Positions 53 through 36,600 of a stretch of DNA of 64,000 nucleotides are shown one piece after another. Every line of letters begins with the position of its first letter. The first letter of the stretch is position 1. This stretch comes from a virus (taxonomy: Duplodnaviria; Caudoviricetes). The DNA lies in the IMG/VR virus record IMGVR_UViG_3300032290_001644, positions 8,736 to 72,735 of that record, one strand, 5' to 3'. The notes under the pieces were generated by a model, which was not told where the DNA came from, ran no database searches, and saw only the letters and a list, made by a program, of their open reading frames with translations. Both the position numbers and the translations under genes were made by a program.

Positions 53-3000
53 TTAAAGGATGATCCAGTTTGTGCCAGTAGACTGTAATGTCAAACAAGC
101 GTATTGTTGGATGATATCCGTACCACCAGTAAGACCATCGATTGAAACGCCGGTACTTGGGATAACGGATACATAGAACGAGGTGAGTTTCTTAAAGTTT
201 AGCTTCATCCCTTTGTTGCCTACACCTGGTACAATATTTGTCAGATTGACATTTGCATTAGCGGATGGACTAAGAAGATAAGTGACTTCTAGAGTACCCG
301 CTGATGGTGCTGTTGGCGTAAAGACATTTGTTGTGAAGGTTGCCGTGATAACATCGGGTAAGGATCCACCACCGCCACCACCTGCAACGGTACCTGGCTT
401 CCATTGTGAGGTAGAGCTTTCCCAAACCAATGCTTGACCATTTGTAGGAGCTACCGAGCTGGTATTGACATCTGATAGAGCATCAATCGAGAAACCGGCA
501 AGTGAGACTACGGCGTCAATACGACTGTTGCCAGTGTTATTTGTGAAAGTGATACCGGTATTTGTTGCGTTGCCACTAGCAAGACCAGCACCAGCTGCAC
601 TTCTAGCTAGAGCATCCGTATACTGAGTCAAGGTTGTACTAATCACACCAGTAGCTTGAGTATATACGATAGGTGAAGTAGCACTGATCAAAGATCTGAC
701 ATTTGTTGAGGATGCGTACTTATTAGTTGTACCTTCTACAAGATCATCAGTTGTTCTAAGTGCACGATCATTTGATACGGTGACATCCCACTGAGCATAT
801 ACGGTACCGCTAATTGTGCGTTTAGTACATACAAGTTTATATTCCCCAGCCTTTGTCAGTACCACGGATTTCACGCCGTTCACGGTACCACTATCAGCAT
901 AAACAATAAACTCACCGCCAGCTACACCACTTGCGTTTAAAGTCACTTGACCGGTACCACGAATCCTAAGATAAGTGACTGCACCAGTACCTTGAGTTAC
1001 TGCTCGTGCTGGTACATTTACCGAGATATTTGTTGATCCATCATATATATAATAGATACCGGCTTGCATGGTTGTACCAGATCCAATATTGGCAACGGCA
1101 ACATTACCATTTGATAAACCGCTTTCAGTATTATCAATCACGGTAAAATCAGTTGCTTGAACAACGCCACCGCTTACATCTGCCACGAATACAATTTGAT
1201 CATTTGTAGTCAAGTTAACGCCAGCTAGTGTACCGCCAACGGATACTTGATAGAAGAAACCTTTTTTAGCACTTACTAAGCTGGGGGTATTAGCGGTTGC
1301 GTCATATGTACCCTTATAAATCAGAGTACCACTTGAGCCGATGGTTGCTTGGATGCTTGCGATTGCAGTATCAACATATTTAGTATTCGCAACTTTAGTG
1401 GAATTATCGCTTGCACTTTGATCGGGTACGACTGGAGCATCACTGAAAGTCTTTACCCCTGCAATCGATTGTGCACCAGTAGTTTGAACAAAGCTACTTG
1501 CATGAAAGCCGTCCAATAGATCTGCTTCAAGACCGGATCCGCTACCGTCCAAGCTCAAGACTTTATTGAAGACATCTGATGCCGTATAGCTACTAGAGTT
1601 GAGTTTAGCGGATAAACCATTGTCAACATAGGTAGTAGTGGCAAATGTTGTGATGCTTGACTCTACACTATCCAGTCTTGTATCAAGTGGATCAGTGATA
1701 CCAGTTACATAGAGCTTGACGGCTTGCGTTGTTGGTGCCTTGTCATCCGTATTGATACTCGAAGTAGTGGTAGCACTCAAGGCTCTAGAGTCGGTAAAGT
1801 ACAATTTACTTGCTTCACCTTGTGCACCAACACCTTCAGTGATATCTCCCGTATATAAAGTGATATCGCCGATTTGACCATTCACACGAGACACTGGAGC
1901 GGTTGGATTATAGAGAGCAATCCATGAGGGAATGGTATCATCATAAATATAATTCCCATTGTTGGATGCAGTTGGATCATTGACAACAATAGCAACATCC
2001 CCCGTATTGATACCGGTTAATGCATCACGATCAGCAATTGTATTCACAACATAAGGCTTGCTCAAGGCCAGCGGGGGGATATGATGATTAGGAATAAGAC
2101 CATTTGCATCTAATTCCGCAACGCCGTTAGCTACCCCTTTATCACTTGTACGGAGCAAGCTAGATGAATCACTAAGTTGAGTGCTGGCGGTAACCAAGCT
2201 TGGTTTATCTCTAAGCTCTGAATAACTACCAGTGAAAGCGGTCTCAACGCCTAAGGCACTAATATAATTTGAAGAAGTTGAGAAGACTTTGACGATACCG
2301 CTTGAATATCCAGTACGGCCAACGATAGCAACACCGCTCGTTAGATTTGTTTGAAGACTATTCAAACCAGCACATTCGGACAAGATGATTAAGAAAGGTG
2401 ATGCTACATTTGTTGGCAAGACTCTCACATTTGTGAAATTACAACGATTGAAATACACGGTGCAATTTGTGAGATTAGAGATAGTGATATTTTGGCTACT
2501 AAACTCACAATCTTGAAATACGATAAAGGTTGAGGTGCTATCTGTTGTACTAGAGATACTTACCCCGCCCAAAATGTCGCAATTTGTAAAGATATGTCTA
2601 CCCTTTGTCCCTGATATCGTGAGAGCACCTTCAATTTGTAGATTTGCTACTCGTACTCGTTCACTTGTACCGCTAATTGTTAATCCCCTACCACCAGCAA
2701 GCTCACAAATTGTATTCCCTACGGCTGGAGCAATGATACCAAGATTAACCTTATTGTTTAGTGTAAGTGTAGATCCACCATATGAGCCAGATGATGCAAA
2801 GATTACATTGCCTTGACTTGTACCGATAGCATCCACTTGAGTTTGAATATCTGTGATGTTGTCATTCGCATAATAAGAATTACTATGTAAGTGATGAGCA
2901 TTCAGATCAGTCACGCTTGCTTGTAAAGCTTGATCTGCACTTACTCTTGCATTAATCTCATTTTGTAGATCCGCTTCTAACGCTCTAAGATCAACGCCAG

Positions 3001-3886
3001 CGGTAAGACCTAAAACATCCGCTTGTAAAGTATCAATTTCACTTTCAGCGGTTGTCACTCTAGTTGTTAAATTGGTTAAATCCGTACTACTAGCCTTGGT
3101 ATCGATACTTGTTTGTAAGGCTTGATCAGCACTAATTCTATTTGTAATTTCCGCTTGTAGATCAGCATCATCCGCCTTCAGATTGACATTTATTTGTAAA
3201 GTACCAATGTTGCTTTCAGCGGTTGTCAATCGAGTTGCTAGTGCTTGATCTGCTTGTGTAAGCGAAGTGATATCACCTTGTAGATCCGAAATAGCGGATG
3301 CGTGCAAGCTGAGTGTATCTCCCTGAGTACTAACAGTAGCGGTGAGTGATGAGATATCAGCGACGGCATCAGCTAAATCGGATGACAAGGTTGTTATACT
3401 TGCACCTTGATTAGACACATCCAACGCCAAGTTTGTCAAATCTGATTGTGTGGTGGTTATGATCTGATCAAGGATCTTGTCTGCATTCTTAAGAGAAGTG
3501 GCAAAATCTAGATAGTTTGTAGTGTTATCTGGGATATATGCACCAGTAGTAGCTAAACCAGCACCAACTTGAGTAGCATCAAGCTCATCTTGTAAGGCTT
3601 GGATATCAACCGAGCCACCAGCTTCAAGAGCATCTAGACGAGCAAGAGTAGTGACGCCAAAGCTTGGATCATTGTTCAAGGCTTGAGCAAGCTCTTCTAG
3701 TGTGTCAAGTGATGTTGGAGCATCTGCTACGACACTACTGATTGCAAGTGATACACCTGCTGGGGTAGAGGCAATCGTGGTGGATGTACCTTCTAGTGTT
3801 TCGGTTGCAGTAGCTAGACGAACAACGCCTGATTGTGTTTCAGTACCTGACTTTACTGTACTATTGTTTCCTTGTAAAACTGGCAT
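53..3886 (-). CDS. Long mosaic virion fibre protein (tail or head fibre) with coiled-coil and beta-helix-like segments
   Basis: 1277 aa. Fibre motifs GVVRLATATET, APTSLDTLEELAQALNNDPSF and KGVANGVAELDANG; repeated ADLQxEIxxRxSADQALQ coiled coil; central Asn/Ser/Thr/Ile-rich beta-helix-like stretch. Confidence 0.8.
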   Translation of the reverse strand: MPVLQGNNSTVKSGTETQSGVVRLATATETLEGTSTTIASTPAGVSLAISSVVADAPTSLDTLEELAQALNNDPSFGVTTLARLDALEAGGSVDIQALQDELDATQVGAGLATTGAYIPDNTTNYLDFATSLKNADKILDQIITTTQSDLTNLALDVSNQGASITTLSSDLADAVADISSLTATVSTQGDTLSLHASAISDLQGDITSLTQADQALATRLTTAESNIGTLQINVNLKADDADLQAEITNRISADQALQTSIDTKASSTDLTNLTTRVTTAESEIDTLQADVLGLTAGVDLRALEADLQNEINARVSADQALQASVTDLNAHHLHSNSYYANDNITDIQTQVDAIGTSQGNVIFASSGSYGGSTLTLNNKVNLGIIAPAVGNTICELAGGRGLTISGTSERVRVANLQIEGALTISGTKGRHIFTNCDILGGVSISSTTDSTSTFIVFQDCEFSSQNITISNLTNCTVYFNRCNFTNVRVLPTNVASPFLIILSECAGLNSLQTNLTSGVAIVGRTGYSSGIVKVFSTSSNYISALGVETAFTGSYSELRDKPSLVTASTQLSDSSSLLRTSDKGVANGVAELDANGLIPNHHIPPLALSKPYVVNTIADRDALTGINTGDVAIVVNDPTASNNGNYIYDDTIPSWIALYNPTAPVSRVNGQIGDITLYTGDITEGVGAQGEASKLYFTDSRALSATTTSSINTDDKAPTTQAVKLYVTGITDPLDTRLDSVESSITTFATTTYVDNGLSAKLNSSSYTASDVFNKVLSLDGSGSGLEADLLDGFHASSFVQTTGAQSIAGVKTFSDAPVVPDQSASDNSTKVANTKYVDTAIASIQATIGSSGTLIYKGTYDATANTPSLVSAKKGFFYQVSVGGTLAGVNLTTNDQIVFVADVSGGVVQATDFTVIDNTESGLSNGNVAVANIGSGTTMQAGIYYIYDGSTNISVNVPARAVTQGTGAVTYLRIRGTGQVTLNASGVAGGEFIVYADSGTVNGVKSVVLTKAGEYKLVCTKRTISGTVYAQWDVTVSNDRALRTTDDLVEGTTNKYASSTNVRSLISATSPIVYTQATGVISTTLTQYTDALARSAAGAGLASGNATNTGITFTNNTGNSRIDAVVSLAGFSIDALSDVNTSSVAPTNGQALVWESSTSQWKPGTVAGGGGGGSLPDVITATFTTNVFTPTAPSAGTLEVTYLLSPSANANVNLTNIVPGVGNKGMKLNFKKLTSFYVSVIPSTGVSIDGLTGGTDIIQQYACLTLQSTGTNWIIL

Positions 3887-20397: not shown

Positions 20398-21747
20398 TTA
20401 TCTTTCATCGTTGTTAGCACTATATTTTAAACTCCTTAGATTTTTAAGGACCTTTGCCGTAAGCTCTTTCTCTTCCTCAACCAAATCTTCTAGTGCGTAG
20501 AGCAACTTGCTAAATTTTTCCATAAAAGACTCTTCAGATACCTCAACCTTGTTAATATCTATCTCTTGGTATTGACCTGGTGATAGACTAAATTTTTGAT
20601 CGTGTACCACCGTTTGATCAATATCAACAAGGAAATCAAGCTTCTCAATTTGTTCACCAGCTCGCCACTTACCTAACTGGTCGATTACTCGGTCAATCAC
20701 CTCATCCTTAAGCTCATTTTGCTTGCGATTGATCGGTGTACCTTGGCTTGCTAAATCTATCAGTAGCATCTTGCCAGCTCTAGCCTTTGCCTTGTTCAGT
20801 ACCCAAATAGAGCATGGGATACTTGTACTCATGAAGAGTTTTGGGGGTAGTGTGATAATAGCTTCCACTAAATCTTGCTTCACTAAATATTCCCTTACCG
20901 CTAGCTCATCCTTTTGAGCGGTTGTGAGAGCACCATTAGCCATGATAATACATGCAATCCCGTCATCTTTTAGGTGATACAAGCAATGGAGGATCCATGC
21001 AAAATTTGCGTTATTAGAAGGTGGCGTTGGGAAGTCTTTAAATCTTGGATCCGAGGCTAAGTGTAATCCACTATCCCATCCTTTTTGATTGTATGGAGGA
21101 TTGGCTAGGATGATATCTGCTCGCAAATCGATATGTTTTGGGGTATCCATAGTGCTACCTGGTAGTCTGCCAAAGTCATAATCCATCTGGTACAACAAAG
21201 CATTGACACAAGCAATCTTCCAACTTGTTGAATTAAACTCCTGGCCATAGTACTCAACCTCACAATGTTGCATGACTCTTGAAATATGTTTATGAGCAAG
21301 TACAAGTAAGCCAGCCGTACCCATAGCAGGATCATAGATTTTCAGCTCATGTCCCTTACCTAGTAGACCAATCTTGATGACAAGCATTGCTAGTGAGGGG
21401 GGAGTATAGAAAGCCCCCAGCTTTTGAGCATCTGCTCTACTCATCAAGCCTTCAAACACAAGACCTAAATCATCCACATCACCGCATAAATCGAATGTTT
21501 TTACTTCATTGTAGATAGCAAGAGCTTTCGTTGACTGGAAGACGCTAGGCTCAAGTAAAAAATAAAATTTGTCTTCATGCTCATCACGCAAATGTCTGAC
21601 CGCCAATTCAAGCTGGGATGATGATGCATAATCTTTATCCCCTGCAATCATTCGTAGTAATAGACTTTGGACAACAATTTTGGCAATTTGCTCTTCAGTC
21701 AGGTGATTTCTATAGGCTTGATAGAGAGCTTCAATCTGATCTTTCAT
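20398..21747 (-). CDS. hsdM: Orphan type I RM methyltransferase subunit (HsdM-like, copy 1)
   Basis: 449 aa. GAFYTP, motif I IYDPAMGTAG, YGQEFN, motif IV ANPPYN, NANFAWILH, ANGAL, LPPKLF, C-terminal SLSPGQY plus helix; shortened N-domain. Confidence 0.92.
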   Translation of the reverse strand: MKDQIEALYQAYRNHLTEEQIAKIVVQSLLLRMIAGDKDYASSSQLELAVRHLRDEHEDKFYFLLEPSVFQSTKALAIYNEVKTFDLCGDVDDLGLVFEGLMSRADAQKLGAFYTPPSLAMLVIKIGLLGKGHELKIYDPAMGTAGLLVLAHKHISRVMQHCEVEYYGQEFNSTSWKIACVNALLYQMDYDFGRLPGSTMDTPKHIDLRADIILANPPYNQKGWDSGLHLASDPRFKDFPTPPSNNANFAWILHCLYHLKDDGIACIIMANGALTTAQKDELAVREYLVKQDLVEAIITLPPKLFMSTSIPCSIWVLNKAKARAGKMLLIDLASQGTPINRKQNELKDEVIDRVIDQLGKWRAGEQIEKLDFLVDIDQTVVHDQKFSLSPGQYQEIDINKVEVSEESFMEKFSKLLYALEDLVEEEKELTAKVLKNLRSLKYSANNDER

Positions 21748-22960: not shown

Positions 22961-23253
22961 CTTTTCTTTCTCCTATAGATACCTAGTGAACGATCTTGTA
23001 AATCGTCAAGCTTTGCTCGTGCTTCTGGAGATAGGTCCATAAAAAAGAGTGTGAAAAGGCAGCTCTCTTTGATCGTGCTAGCGTACTTTTTTTGCTCAAT
23101 CGTTAAATCATCCTTGAGTAGGTACTGGGTACAATATTCCGCTAGATCTTTGTATTGCACTCTTAACTTACCTGGATCTTCCCCAAGCCTACTAGCATAT
23201 TCGATTGCATGGAAATCCAGATTGATCTGATTTTTGATTTCTTGATTAGTCAT
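22957..23253 (-). CDS. Hypothetical protein
   Basis: 98 aa overlapping both neighbours. Confidence 0.6.
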   Translation of the reverse strand: MTNQEIKNQINLDFHAIEYASRLGEDPGKLRVQYKDLAEYCTQYLLKDDLTIEQKKYASTIKESCLFTLFFMDLSPEARAKLDDLQDRSLGIYRRKKR

Positions 23254-23725
23254 TTTTCTTATTTCCTTTGGGTAGTAAACCGAGTGCTTTTGCTCTATAT
23301 CTAGCGGAGTCGATTGTGATACCTAGCGTTTTACTTATCTCACGCCAGCTTAATCCTTGCTCATATACTGCTTTAAATTGGTCCGCAACAAGGTCAAGAT
23401 CAGTGTATCCCTTGTTTTTATGCTGGCCTAAATGTCTCAAAGCATAGTATCTGGCTTGCTCAGCAGTTACACCAAAAGCAGCACCTATTTGACGCCAAGG
23501 CTTCAATTCGATCATCATTTGCTCAAGCTTGATCAGATCCAGCTCCTTTACAGCGTTCTTGCGTACCACTGAAGGCTTTTTGGGGGTAGTTATTTTTACT
23601 TGCTCTTTTGGTGGTACGATAGGAAGATCAATCTTCACTTGCTCTTTTGGTGGTACGATAGGAAGATCAATCATTTGTCCATCTGTTGGCCTATAAATAA
23701 ACGCTTTTGTTATTGTCATGATCAT
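23246..23725 (-). CDS. Two-HTH protein
   Basis: KPWRQIGAAFGVT and LSWREISKTLGIT. Confidence 0.7.
   Translation of the reverse strand: MIMTITKAFIYRPTDGQMIDLPIVPPKEQVKIDLPIVPPKEQVKITTPKKPSVVRKNAVKELDLIKLEQMMIELKPWRQIGAAFGVTAEQARYYALRHLGQHKNKGYTDLDLVADQFKAVYEQGLSWREISKTLGITIDSARYRAKALGLLPKGNKKND
23598..23672. repeat. 39-bp-period tandem duplication
   Basis: 36 identical bp at 23598-23633 and 23637-23672, encoding IDLPIVPPKEQVK twice. Confidence 0.92.
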
Positions 23726-24318
23726 GCCTCACAATTTACTAATTTGACATTTCTTTTAGGTATACCAGCATTGCGTATAATCGCATACAAGGTGCCAAGA
23801 GATACGCCACCTTGTGCAAGGATATCTTCAATCGGTAGGCCTTTTTTATATGCATCTAGAATCCATTCACTTTTATCAAGTACCTGCTTTGTGATACCTT
23901 TTGGCCTACCGCCAACTCTTCCCCTTGCTCTTGCAGCCTTGAGGCCGAGCATGGTTCTTTCTCTGATCATACCTACTTCCATCTCTGCCAGTGCACCGAA
24001 GATGTGAAAGATGAAGACTCCCATGTGCGTGCTTGTATCTATTCCATCGCTTGTCTTGAAATGACAATCCTTGGCTTTGATTTGATCTACTAGCGAAATT
24101 AAATCTTTCATAGATCTACCTAATCGATCGAGCTTAGAGCATACCAAAGTATCACCCTTCTTTAGCTTGTTGAATGCTTTCTTTAGCTCTGGTCTTTCTT
24201 TTGATCTACCAGTAAATTTTTCTTGATAAATTGTGGTGCATCCAACCGATTTTAGATAGTCTATTTGCATATCTAGCGATTGATCTTCGGTCGATACTCT
24301 TGCATATCCAATTAACAT
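23722..24318 (-). CDS. Small serine recombinase (resolvase/invertase)
   Basis: 198 aa. MLIGYARVSTEDQ (catalytic Ser), KLDRLGRS, IRERTMLGLKAARARGRVGGRP, C-terminal HTH. Confidence 0.95.
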   Translation of the reverse strand: MLIGYARVSTEDQSLDMQIDYLKSVGCTTIYQEKFTGRSKERPELKKAFNKLKKGDTLVCSKLDRLGRSMKDLISLVDQIKAKDCHFKTSDGIDTSTHMGVFIFHIFGALAEMEVGMIRERTMLGLKAARARGRVGGRPKGITKQVLDKSEWILDAYKKGLPIEDILAQGGVSLGTLYAIIRNAGIPKRNVKLVNCEA

Positions 24319-24978: not shown

Positions 24979-25284
24979 TCATGATCTAATTTTTGTTTGA
25001 GCGATTGTATTGTATCTTGTGATGAGTGCTGGTGATATCTCTCTGACTGCATCACTAAAGAAAAGTGTTATTGCTTGATCCAGATACTGGTACATAGGTT
25101 TTTGGGTAGCTGGAATTGTATTCGTTTCTAGCGTTTTACAAATCGTCTCAAGTGTATAGTCATAGATACTTGATGCGTTAGGTGCATGACTATTCATATA
25201 CATAGGCCTATTTGCCATCCACTGATTTAGAAATAAACTTGTATAGCAAGTAGGTAAAAATTCTAGGTCCGTAACTGGCTTCAT
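24979..25284 (-). CDS. Hypothetical protein
   Basis: Start taken at MKPVT, where ATG overlaps the upstream TGA (ATGA). Confidence 0.6.
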   Translation of the reverse strand: MKPVTDLEFLPTCYTSLFLNQWMANRPMYMNSHAPNASSIYDYTLETICKTLETNTIPATQKPMYQYLDQAITLFFSDAVREISPALITRYNTIAQTKIRS

Positions 25285-25517
25285 TGGTTTTTCCTCCACA
25301 CATGTACTTGTTCCATAATTGTCAGTAATACAAGTGAACAAAAACTTGTCATTGGTGCCAGTACACATACACTAAATAGACATGCAGTACACACTAGAGC
25401 AAACGATAGAATTTTAATATCTTCACGCTCAACCGCTACCTTGTATGTGAGGGATAAAAATGGATTGATCATGATCCACATGATGATGATATTGATAAGT
25501 GCGAGTAAAATATACAT
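25281..25517 (-). CDS. Small two-pass membrane protein
   Basis: 78 aa with two hydrophobic segments. Confidence 0.5.
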   Translation of the reverse strand: MYILLALINIIIMWIMINPFLSLTYKVAVEREDIKILSFALVCTACLFSVCVLAPMTSFCSLVLLTIMEQVHVWRKNQ

Positions 25518-25519
25518 AT

Positions 25520-25729
25520 TTATTCCAGCTTTGTTTTTAGACCTAGCTCACTTAAGTAAGCATTGATCTTGATTTTGTGTTTTTGGATATCGTTTAAGAG
25601 TTGATTGATCTGATTGAGTGTTTCATCTAGATCAATCGCTTCTTCATCACTATGTTTTATTATATATCTAGGAATATTCAGATTGAAATCATTATTTTCA
25701 ATTTCTGACAAAGAGACACTTCTTACCAT
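25520..25729 (-). CDS. Stand-alone short-type HsdM C-terminal module
   Basis: VSLSEIENNDFNLNIPRYI...EEAIDL...helix...LSELG is the typical short HsdM C-terminus. Confidence 0.8.
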   Translation of the reverse strand: MVRSVSLSEIENNDFNLNIPRYIIKHSDEEAIDLDETLNQINQLLNDIQKHKIKINAYLSELGLKTKLE

Positions 25730-26184
25730 GAAATCCCCAACATCTTTAGGTTTGCATCTAGCTTGTCTTCCAGCTCACGAAGTTGCTGCCTCATGACTGG
25801 TAGCGGTGTATCATATCTACGAATAAGCTCATCTAGTCTAGTATAGAGTTTGACAAGAGCTTCTTCATGTTGCGTGAAATAGGGGAGACCTATGATAAAT
25901 TGTCTCAAAGCTTCCGTACTGATATCAATGTTTGTTATTTTCTCTGGTGCAATTGTAGGCCGGTAGTATTTTGGCCTATGCTCAATCGTGTCAAAGAGTC
26001 TTGCCTTTAGATCAGGGTAATCGGACCAATCAAGACTATCAATATCAACCTTGGGAATACCCCCCAGCATATGAGCCTCTATATCGTGGATATCTTCAGG
26101 CTCAATATTTGGTATGTACCGGTTAATTGCTAAGTTATACTCTTTCTCTTCAATCTCTTTGAGTGATGCCAAATACTCTTTCAT
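25723..26184 (-). CDS. Stand-alone condensed long-type HsdM C-terminal module
   Basis: ASLKEIEEKEYNLAINRYI...DIEAHMLGGIP...RYDTPLP...LKMLGISW, as recalled for long-form HsdM termini. Confidence 0.75.
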   Translation of the reverse strand: MKEYLASLKEIEEKEYNLAINRYIPNIEPEDIHDIEAHMLGGIPKVDIDSLDWSDYPDLKARLFDTIEHRPKYYRPTIAPEKITNIDISTEALRQFIIGLPYFTQHEEALVKLYTRLDELIRRYDTPLPVMRQQLRELEDKLDANLKMLGISW

Positions 26185-27224
26185 GCTTGTTGCTCCCCAA
26201 TCACTTCTAAGATCTTGTTTGTGCGTAGTCTATTCTTCTTACCAACCTTCTCAAACTCTTCGCTTGCATCTATAAAGAGAATGTCGGTTCTTGGTCTATT
26301 CTTCTTGAGTATGATCATGCAAGTAGGGATATCCGTTTGTTGGAAGATCTTGGGGGGTAGACCTATGATCGTATCTATATAGTTTTTCTTGATCAATTGC
26401 TCCCGTATCTTTTGCTCACTACTACCTCTAAACAGCACACCATGCGGTAGTACGATTGAGCAAATACCATCATCTGATAAGTGGCTCATCATATGCTGGA
26501 CAAAGGCAAGATCAGCCGTCTTTTTAGGTGCTAGTATGCCTTCAAATCGTGGATCATCTTTCATTTTATCTTGTTCCCATGCAACACTAAACGGCGGATT
26601 TGCTAGGATTGCATCAAACTTTTGTCCCACATGTTGGGGATTTGCTAGAGTATCCCCCCATCTAATATCACATTGATCAGGTGCTAAACCGTGAATTAAC
26701 AAGTTTTTCCTACAAATCTTGAAAGTCTCTTTGTTTAGCTCTTGACCATAGAATTTGTTCACTTTACCAACACCTTGCAAGATTAGGCCTCCCGCACCAC
26801 ATGTTGGATCATAGATTGATTTAGTTTTACTTGTGATTGTGAGCGTAGCTTGTAATTCTGCCAGCTCCTTAGGCGTGTAAAATTCGCCAAAGATTGCGGA
26901 ATTGCCTTTACTAAAAAAGCCTAAGATCATCTCATAGATATCTCCAAAAGAATGACTATCAATCTTTGAGATATCCAGCTCCGGTAGGATCTGATCTACT
27001 AGCGTCTGATCTTTGAATAGGTCCGTATCAAATAGATCAATCTCTTGTGCGTGGGGGTACATGCGATTTAATTCGTGCATACCTTCATAAACACTACCGC
27101 TAATCTTGTGCCTACTACTTAGCATTTGGTAGGCAATCAGGGACAAGATAAAATTCGTGTATTGTGTTGTTTCCATCTTCCCACGCAAGAGAGTGGCAAC
27201 CTTTAGTAATTGATTTTCGTTCAT
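26181..27224 (-). CDS. hsdM: Orphan HsdM catalytic core (copy 2), lacking its C-terminal tail
   Basis: 347 aa. GEFYTP, IYDPTCGAGG, YGQELN, GDTL, ANPPFS, ADLAFVQH, LPHGVLFRG, FIDAS; stops just before the NLNIPRY segment. Confidence 0.92.
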   Translation of the reverse strand: MNENQLLKVATLLRGKMETTQYTNFILSLIAYQMLSSRHKISGSVYEGMHELNRMYPHAQEIDLFDTDLFKDQTLVDQILPELDISKIDSHSFGDIYEMILGFFSKGNSAIFGEFYTPKELAELQATLTITSKTKSIYDPTCGAGGLILQGVGKVNKFYGQELNKETFKICRKNLLIHGLAPDQCDIRWGDTLANPQHVGQKFDAILANPPFSVAWEQDKMKDDPRFEGILAPKKTADLAFVQHMMSHLSDDGICSIVLPHGVLFRGSSEQKIREQLIKKNYIDTIIGLPPKIFQQTDIPTCMIILKKNRPRTDILFIDASEEFEKVGKKNRLRTNKILEVIGEQQA

Positions 27225-27239
27225 GTAATTGGCCTTGAT

Positions 27240-27704
27240 CTATGTAGTTTTTTTCTGTCTACTTGGTTTACGCTGCTTTACAAAGCCTATTCTTTTGGCG
27301 TAATCTCTTAGTGCTTGAATAGATACACCATACATTTTAGCAATTTCCCACCACGCTCGTTCAGGGGTAGCGAGTGCAATAAACTCTTGAGCGGTTGGTA
27401 GCTGTACCCGTATTACCGTATTGAGAGGCGTCTTACGGATACCGATTGCAAGTACTCTTTTTCTCAAAGCAGACCGTTCCATCTTTAGCTCACGCTCCAT
27501 TTGTCCCCAAGTTTTTGTATGTGCAAAGACTGCTAGGATCATGTCATCGGTAATATGATCATAAGTCTCTCTTGGCTTTCTTGCCTTTGGCTCTTGTGCT
27601 TTTTGTACCTTCTTTGTCTTTGGTTTGGTCTGCTTTCCAAGTACTTCCCCTCGCTCAATCATGCGTTCGATTTGGCGTAATCGTTCATCATCTTGTGTTG
27701 TCAT
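27240..27704 (-). CDS. HTH-repeat protein (two modules)
   Basis: KTWGQMERELKM and RAWWEIAKMYGVS; N-terminal DDERLRQIERMIE. Confidence 0.72.
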   Translation of the reverse strand: MTTQDDERLRQIERMIERGEVLGKQTKPKTKKVQKAQEPKARKPRETYDHITDDMILAVFAHTKTWGQMERELKMERSALRKRVLAIGIRKTPLNTVIRVQLPTAQEFIALATPERAWWEIAKMYGVSIQALRDYAKRIGFVKQRKPSRQKKTT

Positions 27705-28439
27705 CTAAACCTTCTTTGTTCTAGCATGTCTTTCTTTTAAAAAACCGTGTGTTTTCGCATAGCTATGAGCGGATGATGCTACTACGCCAAAATGTGACGC
27801 AATCTCTTTCCAGGTCAAATTTTGTCTCACAAGCTCTTTAAATAGATCTTGATCTAAAATCATTCGCTTGTAATTTCGAGTCTTTTTTATACCTAAGGTT
27901 TTTGCATGCTTACATAAAGCGGTCCGACTGATATTTAGTTTCTTACTGATATCATCCCATGAGCTATCACTATTCGCAAGCTCCAGCATGGTTTCATAGC
28001 TGGGTAATTGAATGTTATTTGTTCTTCTATATTTTTTTCTCATACGAGGCTGGATAACGCCTTTTCTTTTCATCCTATTGTATAGAGCGGATGCCGTCAC
28101 GCCAAGGGTAGGTGCAATTTCTGATAGAGACTGTGTGCTATATTGCTCACACACATCCCAAATTTGGTTATCAGTCAGTACTTTCTTCCAATGACATTTA
28201 TGCTTTTGGATACCTAGCTCGATTGCCTGCTTGCGTGCTTTGGTAGCACTCACATTGACCATATCCCCAATTTGTTTCCATGTTAGATCATCAGATACAA
28301 GATTTTTGAATTGCTCCATGGTACATTCAATTGTCCTTCTCTTTTTGCGTGTTTGTACGCTTGGGGGATTGGCCAGATTATTTTGCTCAATCATTTGCTC
28401 CAGCATTTCTAATCGCTCATCGTCATATTTGTACTTCAT
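27705..28439 (-). CDS. HTH-repeat protein (four modules)
   Basis: LTWKQIG, SLSEIAPTLGV, SWDDISKKLNI, LTWKEIASHFGV; N-terminal DDERLEMLEQMIE; start at MKYKY (GGAAGG RBS). Confidence 0.75.
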   Translation of the reverse strand: MKYKYDDERLEMLEQMIEQNNLANPPSVQTRKKRRTIECTMEQFKNLVSDDLTWKQIGDMVNVSATKARKQAIELGIQKHKCHWKKVLTDNQIWDVCEQYSTQSLSEIAPTLGVTASALYNRMKRKGVIQPRMRKKYRRTNNIQLPSYETMLELANSDSSWDDISKKLNISRTALCKHAKTLGIKKTRNYKRMILDQDLFKELVRQNLTWKEIASHFGVVASSAHSYAKTHGFLKERHARTKKV

Positions 28440-28441
28440 AA

Positions 28442-28621
28442 TCACACCTTCCCTTGAACAAGCTTGCATCTGAAAGTGGTTGCATTCCATCTATATCTCA
28501 TATCTTGCACCTTCTCAGTGACTTCTGGATCAGTGAGAGCACACGATTTTTCTAGTGGAATTTGAAAATCAAAAACTATTTCATCTACCACTAGACGCAG
28601 TAATAATATATTGCCAAACAT
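28442..28621 (-). CDS. Small hypothetical protein
   Basis: 59 aa from MFGNI with GGAG RBS. Confidence 0.5.
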   Translation of the reverse strand: MFGNILLLRLVVDEIVFDFQIPLEKSCALTDPEVTEKVQDMRYRWNATTFRCKLVQGKV

Positions 28622-33780: not shown

Positions 33781-36600
33781 ATGCAATTTTCCGATCATGC
33801 TCTATCACTTTTGAGGAGCTACTACCTATTACCATACGAAAAAGAAATTGATGAGGCCTTTGAGCGAGCAAGCAAGGCTTATTGTGCTGGTGATTATGAT
33901 CTAGCTAGTCGTATCTACAACTATGTAAAAAAGGGGTGGTTTATGTTCTCATCCCCTATTTTATCCAATTCCAGGATCAAGGATGATGAGAAGAAAAAGG
34001 CTGGCTTACCAATCTCTTGCTACCTGACCTATGTCAATGATGATCTTGATGGTCTCATATCCCATACAACTGAAAATCGTTGGCTTGGAGTACTAGGTGG
34101 CGGTGTAGGTGGTTACTGGGGACATGTGAGAGCGGTATCTCAAAAAGCACCTGGTCCTATTCCCTTTATCAAGACCATTGATAGTGATGTAGAGGCTTAC
34201 CGCCAAGGGAAGACACGACGAGCAAGCTATGCAGCATACCTTGATATTAGTCATCCAGATATCATTGAATTTCTCAATCTACGATTACCCACTGGGGGGG
34301 ATACCAATCGCAAGGCCTTTAATTTGCACAATGCAATTTGCCTAAGTGATGAATTTATGCAAGCGGTGGTGGATAATAAAGCATGGGATTTGATTGATCC
34401 ACACACACACGAGACAAGAGAGACGGTACAAGCAAGAGAGCTTTGGCAACGAATTTTAGAAGTACGATTTAGAACGGGTGAGCCTTATCTCATGTTCAAG
34501 GATACCGCTAATAGAGCCTTACCCCAAAGCCTAAAGGATAAAGGCCTAAAAATTCATAGCTCAAATCTTTGTCTTGCTGGTAGTGAACGAGTAATCACAA
34601 ATCGAGGATATTTAACCGCCAAAGAGTTATATGAGCAAGGGGGGGAGCTTGAGATTTTTGATGGTGTACACAAGCAAAAAGCCACTGAGATGAGATTGGT
34701 TGAGAAGGATGTACCCACATATAAAATCACTCTTAAGAACGGTTTATCACATACCATAACAAGTTATCACCGAGTACGAACGGATAATGGATTGACCGCT
34801 TGTGAAGATTTAAAGGTTGGGGATAGAGTACATATCCAGAGCAATAAAGGTCTTTTTGGTACAACCAGCATGGAGGATGAGGCCTTCCTACTAGGTTTAT
34901 ATCAAGCAGATGGTACCCAATACAAAGATACGATCATGCTGGATCTATGGGAAGATGATTTTGATCTGATCGAGGAAATTGAAGAACGCTTTGCAAGAGT
35001 ACATCACAAGTATGGATGCGATACATATGAGATAAAAAATTCTCATGGTGTCATTACAAGAGGTAGAGAGCCTGCAAAATTCAATGATTGTATTGTAAAT
35101 CAAAGTACTGTTGCCAAAAAGCGATTAGCCTCTAAAACACTAAAGAAGTCTCTTGATTTCACAAAAGGACAAATTCCTTATTGGATTTGGGAATCAGATG
35201 AAGCTACCCAGTGGCAATATGTCAGAGGTTTATTCTATGCTGATGGTTGTGTATCTTTAGCCTCCTCTAAAGGTGAGCCAATTTATCTTAGTATCGCTAA
35301 TGTAAATAAAGATTTTCTAAATGAATTACATTTACTTTTAAGAAATTTAGGTTTGCCTTTTGCTCTTCACCTACAAAGAGAAGCAGGTTTCTCAAGCCTA
35401 CCAGATGGTAAAGGCGGATACAAAGATTACCCAACACAAACATGTTATCGCTTAGTATGTGGATCTAAAAACGCTTGTTTACGCTTAGAAGAAAAAACTG
35501 GCTTTCTTACTAGACGAGGCGTAGATCTTGAAAAAAGACCTTGGCGTGATAATACTCGTAAAGTGTCTGAAGTGGTATCCGTGGAGTATATTTGCCACCA
35601 AGATGTATACTGCCTAACCGTAGATTCTGAAAGTCATTTGTTTGTAGCGAATGGTGTTATTACACATAACTGTTCCGAAATTTTCTTGCCAACGGCTAAA
35701 GATAGATCTGCCGTATGTTGCCTCTCTAGTCTCAATCTTGAATATTTTGATGAGTGGAAAAATACCCCTATTGTTGAGGATTGCATTACTTTCCTAGACA
35801 ATGTACTTCAATATTTTATTGATCATGCTCCCCCCCAACTGGCGAATGCAATCCATGGAGCAAGACAAGAACGATCATTAGGTCTTGGTGCTATGGGATT
35901 TCATTCATACCTACAACGCAAGAAGGTTGCCTTTGAGTCTATTGTGGCAAAAAGCTTTAATAAAAAAATCTTTAAACTGATCAATGAACGAGCAGTTTTA
36001 CAATCTCAAAAATTAGCTACCGAGCGTGGTGAATATCCTGATGGCTTAGGCACTGGTAGACGCAATGCTCATCTCTTAGCGATTGCTCCCAACTCAAACT
36101 CTTCAATCATTTTGGATACTTCCCCCAGCATTGAGCCTTGGGTTGCCAATGCCTTCACACATAGGACCAGAGCGGGTACTTTCCTTACTAAGAATAGGTA
36201 TCTTGATGATTTGTTAAGGAGCAAAGGCTTGAGTGAGTCTGAATATGAAGAGGTTTGGCAATCAATCATCATCCATGAAGGATCAGTGCAACATCTTGAT
36301 TTACTGACAGAGCATGAGCGAAAAATCTTTAAGACGGCGTATGAAATCGATCAACGCTGGGTAATCTTACATGCAGGGGAACGCCAACCGTTTATTTGCC
36401 AAGGTCAATCAACAAATCTCTTCTTCCCTTCAGGTAGTGATAAATCCTATGTCAATGCTTGCCACCTTCAAGCTTGGAAGGATGGCTTAAAGTCAGTGTA
36501 CTATCTTCGTACTACTGCTGGTACACAAGCGGAAAAAATCTCTAAACCAATCGTCAAGGAAGTCGTAAAACTTGATGAATGTATCGCATGTCAAGGATGA
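33781..36600 (+). CDS. nrdA: Class Ia ribonucleotide reductase alpha subunit, intein-containing, no ATP cone
   Basis: FSSPILSN, PISCY, GGGVG, YRQGKTRRASYA, SNL[intein]CSEI, LGLGAMG, IAPNSNSS, YYLR, C-terminal CxxC. Confidence 0.95.
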   Translation: MQFSDHALSLLRSYYLLPYEKEIDEAFERASKAYCAGDYDLASRIYNYVKKGWFMFSSPILSNSRIKDDEKKKAGLPISCYLTYVNDDLDGLISHTTENRWLGVLGGGVGGYWGHVRAVSQKAPGPIPFIKTIDSDVEAYRQGKTRRASYAAYLDISHPDIIEFLNLRLPTGGDTNRKAFNLHNAICLSDEFMQAVVDNKAWDLIDPHTHETRETVQARELWQRILEVRFRTGEPYLMFKDTANRALPQSLKDKGLKIHSSNLCLAGSERVITNRGYLTAKELYEQGGELEIFDGVHKQKATEMRLVEKDVPTYKITLKNGLSHTITSYHRVRTDNGLTACEDLKVGDRVHIQSNKGLFGTTSMEDEAFLLGLYQADGTQYKDTIMLDLWEDDFDLIEEIEERFARVHHKYGCDTYEIKNSHGVITRGREPAKFNDCIVNQSTVAKKRLASKTLKKSLDFTKGQIPYWIWESDEATQWQYVRGLFYADGCVSLASSKGEPIYLSIANVNKDFLNELHLLLRNLGLPFALHLQREAGFSSLPDGKGGYKDYPTQTCYRLVCGSKNACLRLEEKTGFLTRRGVDLEKRPWRDNTRKVSEVVSVEYICHQDVYCLTVDSESHLFVANGVITHNCSEIFLPTAKDRSAVCCLSSLNLEYFDEWKNTPIVEDCITFLDNVLQYFIDHAPPQLANAIHGARQERSLGLGAMGFHSYLQRKKVAFESIVAKSFNKKIFKLINERAVLQSQKLATERGEYPDGLGTGRRNAHLLAIAPNSNSSIILDTSPSIEPWVANAFTHRTRAGTFLTKNRYLDDLLRSKGLSESEYEEVWQSIIIHEGSVQHLDLLTEHERKIFKTAYEIDQRWVILHAGERQPFICQGQSTNLFFPSGSDKSYVNACHLQAWKDGLKSVYYLRTTAGTQAEKISKPIVKEVVKLDECIACQG
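34570..35670 (+). mobile_element. Intein with LAGLIDADG homing endonuclease (367 aa)
   Basis: Starts CLAGSERV, ends FVANGVITHN before Cys; LLGLYQADG and VRGLFYADG motifs. Confidence 0.95.

Follow-up and report, generated by a model that had tools for sequence, protein, structure and literature searches.

A split HsdM-like methylase gene with two separate C-terminal tail genes in an aquatic, myovirus-like phage

We have analysed a stretch of 64,000 nucleotides (nt), here called the window, which makes up most of a 72.7-kb IMG/VR virus record (IMGVR_UViG_3300032290_001644) bearing direct terminal repeats (DTRs). The locus of interest, at positions 25520-27224, codes for a relative of HsdM, the M subunit of type I restriction-modification systems, which is distributed over three overlapping open reading frames (ORFs): a catalytic core and two alternative C-terminal tails. 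The phage is aquatic and myovirus-like. It has a GC content of 40% and codes for, among others, a tail sheath, baseplate proteins, a DNA polymerase, a primase-helicase and a ribonucleotide reductase, and DNA nearly identical to it occurs in sequencing runs from 14 studies labelled freshwater, marine or aquatic (the habitat labels of the runs are used for description only). The locus is made up of the following features.

27224..26181, minus strand: ORF for the HsdM-like catalytic core, 347 amino acids (aa), matching PF02384
26184..25723, minus strand: ORF for the long-type tail, 153 aa, homologous to HsdM C-terminal regions
25729..25520, minus strand: ORF for the short-type tail, 69 aa, matching the ends of the PF02384 and TIGR00497 profiles
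26181..26184, minus strand: junction 1, ATGA; the core stop codon TGA (26183-26181) overlaps the long-tail ATG (26184-26182)
25723..25729, minus strand: junction 2, ATGGTAA; the long-tail stop codon TAA (25725-25723) overlaps the short-tail ATG (25729-25727)
26193..26198, minus strand: Shine-Dalgarno-like run GGGGAG, 8 nt before the long-tail ATG, within the end of the core coding sequence
25734..25738, minus strand: Shine-Dalgarno-like run GGGGA, 4 nt before the short-tail ATG

The original prediction, made from the letters of the window, had described a core with intact motifs I and IV that stops just before the NLNIPRY segment of HsdM, followed by two ORFs that each open with the missing segment. 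This description is correct. Motif I (DPTCGAGG) and motif IV (NPPF) are present, the profile match of the core ends at position 267 of 311, and the tails open with LASLKEIEEKEYNLAINRYI (long tail) and SVSLSEIENNDFNLNIPRYI (short tail). The stop/start overlaps at 26181-26184 and 25723-25729 also hold, as does the string TTGGGGA ahead of both tail starts (26200-26194 and 25740-25734).

Both tails are in the -1 frame relative to the ORF that precedes them. The ATGA overlap at the end of the core is found in every split relative (relatives of the locus are designated by L-numbers). Junction 2 is identical in L012-L020, while in relatives of the L021/L026 type the second junction is a 4-nt overlap rather than ATGGTAA. 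A G-rich run 6-9 nt ahead of the tail ATG occurs also in L004, L005, L006, L011 and L026; within the phage, Shine-Dalgarno-like G-rich motifs precede 34 of 51 ORFs. Between the three ORFs there is neither a terminator-like site nor a meaningful repeat, and promoter and terminator scans of the locus stayed at chance level. Core and tails are best described, as far as the sequence can tell, as an operon-like run with signals for stop/start-coupled translation of one transcript, from which the tails would be released as separate products. The preference of the original prediction for translational coupling over random decay is borne out in that the split is conserved and under selection, with overlaps and Shine-Dalgarno-like runs kept in relatives.

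The same junctions might instead be sites of programmed -1 ribosomal frameshifting, which would yield fused HsdM variants (core plus long tail, possibly core plus long plus short tail) and make the split only apparent. This would agree with the -1 frame of both tails and with the G-rich Shine-Dalgarno-like run before each junction; runs of this kind are able to promote frameshifting in certain genes. However, no slippery heptamer of the type X_XXY_YYZ is present at any junction, and the tail frame is open for just 3-15 codons upstream of the ATG (3 codons in L004, L005 and L011). In every variant the ATG exactly overlaps the stop codon and the Shine-Dalgarno-like run is at normal distance, which is the signature of coupled re-initiation. 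We consider frameshifting very unlikely.

The core matches PF02384 (N6_Mtase) with an E-value of 1.6e-83, beginning at profile position 3, and TIGR00497 (hsdM) with 228.4 bits over positions 174-450 of 515. Because of the truncations at both ends, the latter score stays below the equivalog cut-off of 242.75; the 69-aa short tail by itself scores 14.4 bits against this profile. When compared to 39 full-length HsdMs, the core has an N-terminal domain that is shorter by about 85-90 residues and lacks everything past the helix before the NLNIPRY segment. The HsdM N-terminal domain PF12161 reaches 22.5 bits, below its cut-off of 24.5, and covers residues 3-46 only. In EcoKI, this domain is connected with the preference for maintenance methylation and with the m* mutations, and some mutations there also abolish restriction (PMC12707154). 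Motifs I and IV are invariant among relatives. Judged by these matches, the core has the gamma-class N6-adenine methyltransferase domain in full as far as the helix ahead of the docking strand.

The short tail consists of the docking segment, a linker and one long C-terminal helix which ends with LSELGLK. It matches the ends of both profiles (PF02384 positions 283-310, TIGR00497 positions 466-510). A profile of four short tails aligns to residues 436-494 of the 499 of PacII M1 with an E-value of 3.6e-10, and also to PacII M2, to residues 455-513 of 3LKD and to residues 453-510 of the 520 of EcoR124I HsdM. In PacII, the C-terminal tails of the M subunits and the coiled coil of the S subunit form a four-helix bundle, and deletion of the tail abolishes assembly (PMC9613975). 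EcoKI HsdM from which about 43 C-terminal residues were removed is folded and no longer binds M1S1 (PMC2647291). The short-tail helix can be assigned by alignment as homologous to the helix that binds the HsdS coiled coil in PacII and EcoR124I.

The long tail is composed of its docking segment, a region with the pattern EPED..GGIP..DID, a small middle domain and a C-terminal helical hairpin that ends with LKMLGISW. No Pfam family matched it, and 466 relatives were found among 1.8 billion cluster representatives, all of which were scanned. Its residues 5-83 typically match positions of about 420-510 in HsdMs of 800-900 aa which have HsdM_N and N6_Mtase domains. Residues 5-153 are 38% identical to the fused C-terminus of a 556-aa HsdM from Nostoc (L040), the gene of which is followed by an hsdS gene with PF01420. 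The AlphaFold2 (AF2) model of the long tail has a predicted local distance difference test score (pLDDT) of 85.9 and a predicted template modelling score of 0.68, with helices at 107-125 and 128-148 and less confidence for the first 30 residues. This model matched no PDB fold at E <= 0.001; its top rows were winged-helix-like, but these are weak (E > 2) and were not used. A sequence search of PDB with the long tail returned only the NLNIPRY piece of 3LKD (E 0.21). Contact of the long tail with HsdS is putative. The two tails are, as originally described, one of the long and one of the short type, and represent alternative C-terminal modules from two different HsdM families. The host could not be identified via the closest bacterial tail, as the relatives of the long tail, with identities of 33-60%, are scattered over many phyla.

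The position of the cut within the methylase fold was located with the AF2 model of a fused homologue, which has a pLDDT of 85.7 and can be superposed on HsdM structures from one end to the other with template modelling scores of 0.73-0.78. In this model, the last core helix (384-392) is followed by a loop, a strand (400-403), a helix (405-410) and the segment NLNFPRF. Residues 391-420 have a pLDDT of 93-96; a low-confidence linker and a long helix (432-459) come after them. By alignment, the core stops within the loop that connects helix 384-392 to strand 400-403. Some 25 residues of each tail thus belong, by the Pfam definition, to the globular methylase domain, and the free helix comes in addition to them; parts arranged in this way would be expected if the fragments complement each other. 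Conservation is 62-67% in the docking segments, which comprise the strand, the short helix and NLNIPRY, versus 33-42% in linker and helix.

The layout of 347, 153 and 69 aa with the same overlaps of 4 nt and 7 nt was found in at least nine independent assemblies. The contigs in question, from nine further samples, code for proteins that are 96-97% identical to the short tail and have the same layout as far as the contig extends. An indel error at the first junction, which the original prediction had named as a possible cause of the split, was looked for in contigs of runs X3, X4 and X6 that cover 25400-27400 (one contig each for X3 and X6, two overlapping contigs for X4). None has an indel in the three-gene stretch. 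X3 and X4 are near-identical to the window and may be its own source, while X6, which differs by 53 substitutions, is an independent witness. Run X18, the RNA-Seq label of which is a guess, was considered as expression evidence but has only short partial contigs, some of them from relatives, and is not usable.

Relaxed selection had been named as another sign of decay. The ratio of non-synonymous to synonymous substitutions (dN/dS, Nei-Gojobori) is well below 1, with values of 0.065-0.115 for the core, which indicates strong purifying selection. Among window-type copies, the long tail has 10 synonymous versus 16 non-synonymous changes (pN/pS 0.43, p = 0.033) and the short tail has 5 versus 4 (pN/pS 0.19, p = 0.018). 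Both tails are under moderate purifying selection.

These data bear on the possibility that the locus is a decaying pseudogene or an assembly artefact, i.e. an hsdM broken by indels of which fragments of two genes were left. Fragmented hsdM genes with starts at an internal methionine are common among bacterial and metagenomic gene calls, and the dN/dS of the tails (0.2-0.4) is above that of the core. But identical junctions in at least nine assemblies and spanning contigs free of indels are not expected from decay, and the split is kept among relatives at tail identities of 30-51% with no stop codons or frameshifts gained. For both tails pN/pS is significantly below neutral, and starts and Shine-Dalgarno-like runs are conserved. 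We regard the pseudogene or artefact explanation as effectively refuted. Stand-alone tail-like proteins from a 50% cluster library were considered as further natural splits; as many of them start at an internal methionine (MVPLAEI..., MIDASKGF...), they were judged to be fragments or miscalled pseudogenes.

Close relatives, with core identities of 79-92%, are split at the same place and show four layouts. These are both tails of the window type, both tails of the L026 type, a core with only the short tail (L004, L005, L011, L027-L029) and a core with only the long tail (L006-L010). In L021-L024 and L026 the core is 92% identical to that of the window and has the same ...IGE.QA end, while the tails, a long one of 146 aa and a short one of 68 aa, have only 30-33% and 42-44% identity to their counterparts. 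Kept in these tails are the starts, the overlaps and the motifs NL.I.RY, GG(I/F)P, RY..L and L..(M/L)G(I/L), and such conservation over a long range speaks most strongly against an artefact or decay.

Relatives with a single intact gene, which according to the original prediction would speak against a genuine split, do exist. In more distant phages (P0005, L030 and L038; 42-49% identity) core and short tail are fused in a gene coding for 468 aa. We take this to mark the probable ancestral state, since the fused form is the one found in the more distant phages, and it leaves the split of the closer relatives intact. The likely order of events is that a fused gene was cut first, with the long tail arriving afterwards as an addition or a replacement.

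The first approximately 12 residues are alike in whichever tail follows the core (M+.HIV.LEEI.K in the short tail of L004 and in the long tails of L021/L026), and short tails in the second position share a different start. This hints at recombination inside the docking segment, as far as can be read from such similarities. Between the window and L012, DNA identity is 96-100% in the tails and 89-95% in the core; we tried to derive a recombination breakpoint from this contrast, but the heterogeneity is modest and too weak for this purpose. The proposal that the tails are swappable stands at the level of genes, as they behave as exchangeable cassettes (short, long or both) and are far more divergent than the core. 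Its other part, that the tails dock on HsdS of the host or act as dominant-negative inhibitors, goes beyond this and is inferred.

No gene for a partner of the methylase was found in the phage. The complete, DTR-bounded 72.7-kb genome has no match at E <= 1 to HsdS (PF01420) and no match to HsdR (PF04313, TIGR00348), while control genomes were matched. Two related phage records have no match to PF01420 either, and neither a coiled-coil nor a TRD-like (target recognition domain) partner was detected in the phage. We infer that the locus codes for an orphan type I methyltransferase which is functional and split by nature, and its conserved layout suggests that the phage plugs its methylase into recognition subunits of the host to escape restriction.

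Based on homology to solved M2S complexes and on the absence of hsdS from the phage, we tentatively favour a reading, plausible if still somewhat short of probable, in which the tails serve as interchangeable adaptors: docked on the core, they would recruit HsdS of the host, be it for protective methylation, for sequestration of the S subunit, or for both. Either tail would re-attach non-covalently to the core and complete its fold, and its free helix would then insert into the coiled coil of the host HsdS. The resulting hybrid methylase would be aimed at the type I sites of the host itself, and phage DNA would become methylated there. HsdS might at the same time be held in complexes that are unable to restrict. 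With its N-terminal domain shortened, the core may be inclined towards de novo methylation and may be poor at recruiting HsdR. With two tails from different families, more HsdS families, or more hosts, could be used; tail cassettes would be exchanged between phages, and free tails could additionally block M-S assembly of the host.

In its most far-reaching form, this would amount to a "Trojan" M subunit: a core that has shed the regulatory N-terminal domain would use its swappable tails to engage HsdS from two type I families, withhold S from the restriction complex, and replace tails as hosts change. We consider this full combination possible but rather doubtful.

Several points weigh against adaptors for the HsdS of the host. 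The selection estimate for the tails is built on few substitutions. The membrane-protein gene downstream of the tails diverges as much as they do (33-76%), so that tail divergence alone is no proof of adaptive change, and the fast evolution of the tails may result from weak constraint or a mosaic boundary instead of adaptation to a partner. No bacterial HsdM tail was found that is close enough to point to a recent capture from a host (the best matches to the long tail have 38-60% identity and come from many phyla). Our literature search found no published case of a phage M subunit that uses HsdS of a host. Finally, the phage has a second HsdM-like methylase and, near the locus, proteins with arrays of helix-turn-helix (HTH) repeats, which allow for a partner from the phage itself. 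The genes concerned are the following.

20398-21747, minus strand: second orphan HsdM-like methylase, 449 aa, matching PF02384 positions 3-304 and 32% identical to the split core
27705-28490, minus strand: HTH-array protein
27240-27704, minus strand: HTH-array protein
23246-23725, minus strand: HTH-array protein

The three HTH-array proteins have 2-4 tandem HTH repeats each and their genes are interleaved with methylase genes; the family could be a regulator or a DNA-targeting partner. With such genes at hand, the system might be independent of HsdS or internal to the phage: the tail helices would serve for self-association of the methylase, for pairing with the second HsdM-like methylase, or for binding of a DNA-binding partner of the HTH-array type that supplies recognition. 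The combination of two HsdM-like methylases without HsdS is conserved in three related phage records, and HTH-array genes are immediately upstream of the core in the window, in L004 and in L006, and also in L012, where a gene for 250 aa is in between. In L005 and L011, however, the HTH-array gene is not adjacent and N6_N4 methylases precede the core. Furthermore, the short tail is homologous to helices that bind the coiled coil of HsdS, long-tail homologues occur in canonical hsdM-hsdS operons, and the failure to detect a coiled-coil or TRD-like partner in the phage applies here too. We consider a system that is independent of HsdS or internal to the phage unlikely.

The second HsdM-like methylase has a fused tail of its own, with FSLSPGQY and a C-terminal helix, and a protein of this kind (about 450 aa, fused tail) is encoded in all three phage records, that of the window and the two related ones. 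A third HsdM, with a full length of 541 aa and the domains HsdM_N and N6_Mtase, is found in L004 at 2222-3847, where its gene directly precedes that of the split core; it shares 31% identity with the core, has a tail of a different family and is located on a 12-kb contig without hsdS. In the records examined, these phages collect M-type subunits with different tails and never an S subunit. That S is never carried would be explained if their M subunits do copy the specificity of the host.

The tails could also act mainly without the core. As dominant-negative decoys, free tails would occupy the HsdM-binding groove of the host HsdS, block formation of M2S1 and R2M2S1, and so relieve restriction without any methylation; this is the second alternative of the original prediction and is compatible with the adaptor reading. 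There are two tails per core, so that tails would be in excess if docking is exclusive. The groove is a critical anchor, as C-terminal deletion of the tail abolishes M-S assembly in PacII and EcoKI, and the long tail is modelled confidently on its own (pLDDT 85.9). On the other hand, the core is under far stronger purifying selection than the tails and all catalytic motifs are kept, from which it follows that methylation is clearly selected. Neither relatives with a single tail nor the fused form can depend on a surplus of free tails. That decoy action is the main function seems quite improbable to us.

The adaptor reading must also be seen in relation to systems already described. The core has the same catalytic domain and motifs as canonical HsdMs (EcoR124I, 7BST; PacII, 7VRU; Streptococcus thermophilus, 3LKD; TIGR00497), and, taken together, core and short tail can be aligned to the C-terminal two thirds of the EcoR124I, PacII and 3LKD proteins over their full extent. 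In contrast to these, the phage enzyme has its tail, together with the last piece of the methylase domain, on polypeptides of their own with separate starts, two alternative tails exist, the N-terminal domain is shortened, and the gene is carried by a phage whose genome has neither hsdS nor hsdR. The 153-aa tail resembles long-tailed HsdMs (800-900 aa, or 556 aa in the condensed Nostoc form): the part of these proteins that follows NLNIPRY (EPED..GGIP..DID) is homologous to it, as are the helices at their end. In the bacterial proteins this tail is fused and followed by hsdS, whereas in the phage it stands alone, beside a core of the short-tail HsdM lineage.

Similar to orphan methyltransferases that phages and plasmids use against restriction, the locus provides an adenine methylase without a cognate nuclease, and its relatives carry further methylase genes. 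But known orphan methylases have their own target-recognition part or are non-specific, whereas the phage core is a recognition-less subunit, the assembly module of which is detached and variable. M.EcoGIX was considered as a precedent for an HsdM-like enzyme that is independent of S, and was dropped: its paper describes a plasmid single-strand methylase and names no kinship to HsdM. HsdM-like genes are present in 111 GenBank phage records, all with less than 60% identity; the one that was inspected, PV036457.1, is a fused long form. A DNA-level search of the phage collection gave no match, and the sole match in a DNA search of the plasmid collection was a 207-nt hsdM stretch in Acinetobacter.

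Exchange of subunits is known for type I systems, the families of which are defined by complementation, subunits being exchangeable within a family (PMC12707154). M and S assemble in trans via contacts between M tail and S coiled coil (PMC12707154; PMC2647291), and the phage tails would use the same principle. Different from the known cases, the subunit exchanged would be a phage M rather than an S, it would act against a host defence, and compatibility would be set by a separate tail gene. In our literature search neither a split HsdM nor genes for alternative tails turned up, and no phage M subunit was found described that works with an S subunit of the host. The anatomy of the locus is well supported and unusual, and it represents a variation on the orphan phage methylase and on the type I M subunit.

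Phages counter type I restriction with DNA mimics (Ocr, ArdA), with enhancers of host methylation of the Ral type and with self-contained methylases. If the adaptor reading is true, an M subunit that borrows S from the host would be a different anti-restriction strategy, able to copy any specificity of the host. Independent of this, the natural cut marks a split site that HsdM tolerates and that parts catalysis from subunit assembly. It also marks the assembly module as exchangeable between HsdM families, which is useful for the understanding of type I family compatibility and for the engineering of programmable methylases. Should the tails have a phage protein as their partner, this would point to targeting of HsdM by means other than HsdS.

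Two further genes are located close to the tails.

25281..25517, minus strand: small hydrophobic/membrane protein, 78 aa, a conserved neighbour directly downstream of the tails
23722-24318, minus strand: small serine recombinase (PF00239, E 4.7e-42), 1.2-2 kb downstream of the tails

The gene for the 78-aa hydrophobic protein follows the last tail in L004, L005, L011 and L026, and in L038, which is part of a 72-kb record with DTRs, it comes directly after the fused gene for 468 aa. It may be a part of the tail-core system. A gene for the serine recombinase is also near the locus in L004, L006, L011, L013 and L016. Switching of the tails by inversion through this recombinase was considered and rejected, as the two tails are encoded on the same strand and no inverted or direct repeats of note flank them.

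Some minor observations concern genes upstream of the core and elsewhere in the window. One of the HTH-array proteins has 154 aa; its orthologue is directly upstream of the core in L006 and is not at that position in L005 and L011. The ORF at 23246..23725 contains a tandem duplication of 39 nt at 23592-23669, in perfect register and 95% identical, which leads to the repeated peptide IDLPIVPPKEQVK. The 250-aa gene between HTH-array gene and core, of unknown function, is found in the window-type relatives L012 (2000-2752) and L014 (364-1116), and corresponds to an insertion of 753 nt at window positions 27224-27233 in contigs of runs X6 and X18. The gene for the large subunit of ribonucleotide reductase (33781-36600, plus strand) has its family matches in two separated stretches, with an endonuclease-like and terminase-like insert at about residues 264-566, which may be an intein or a homing-endonuclease insertion.

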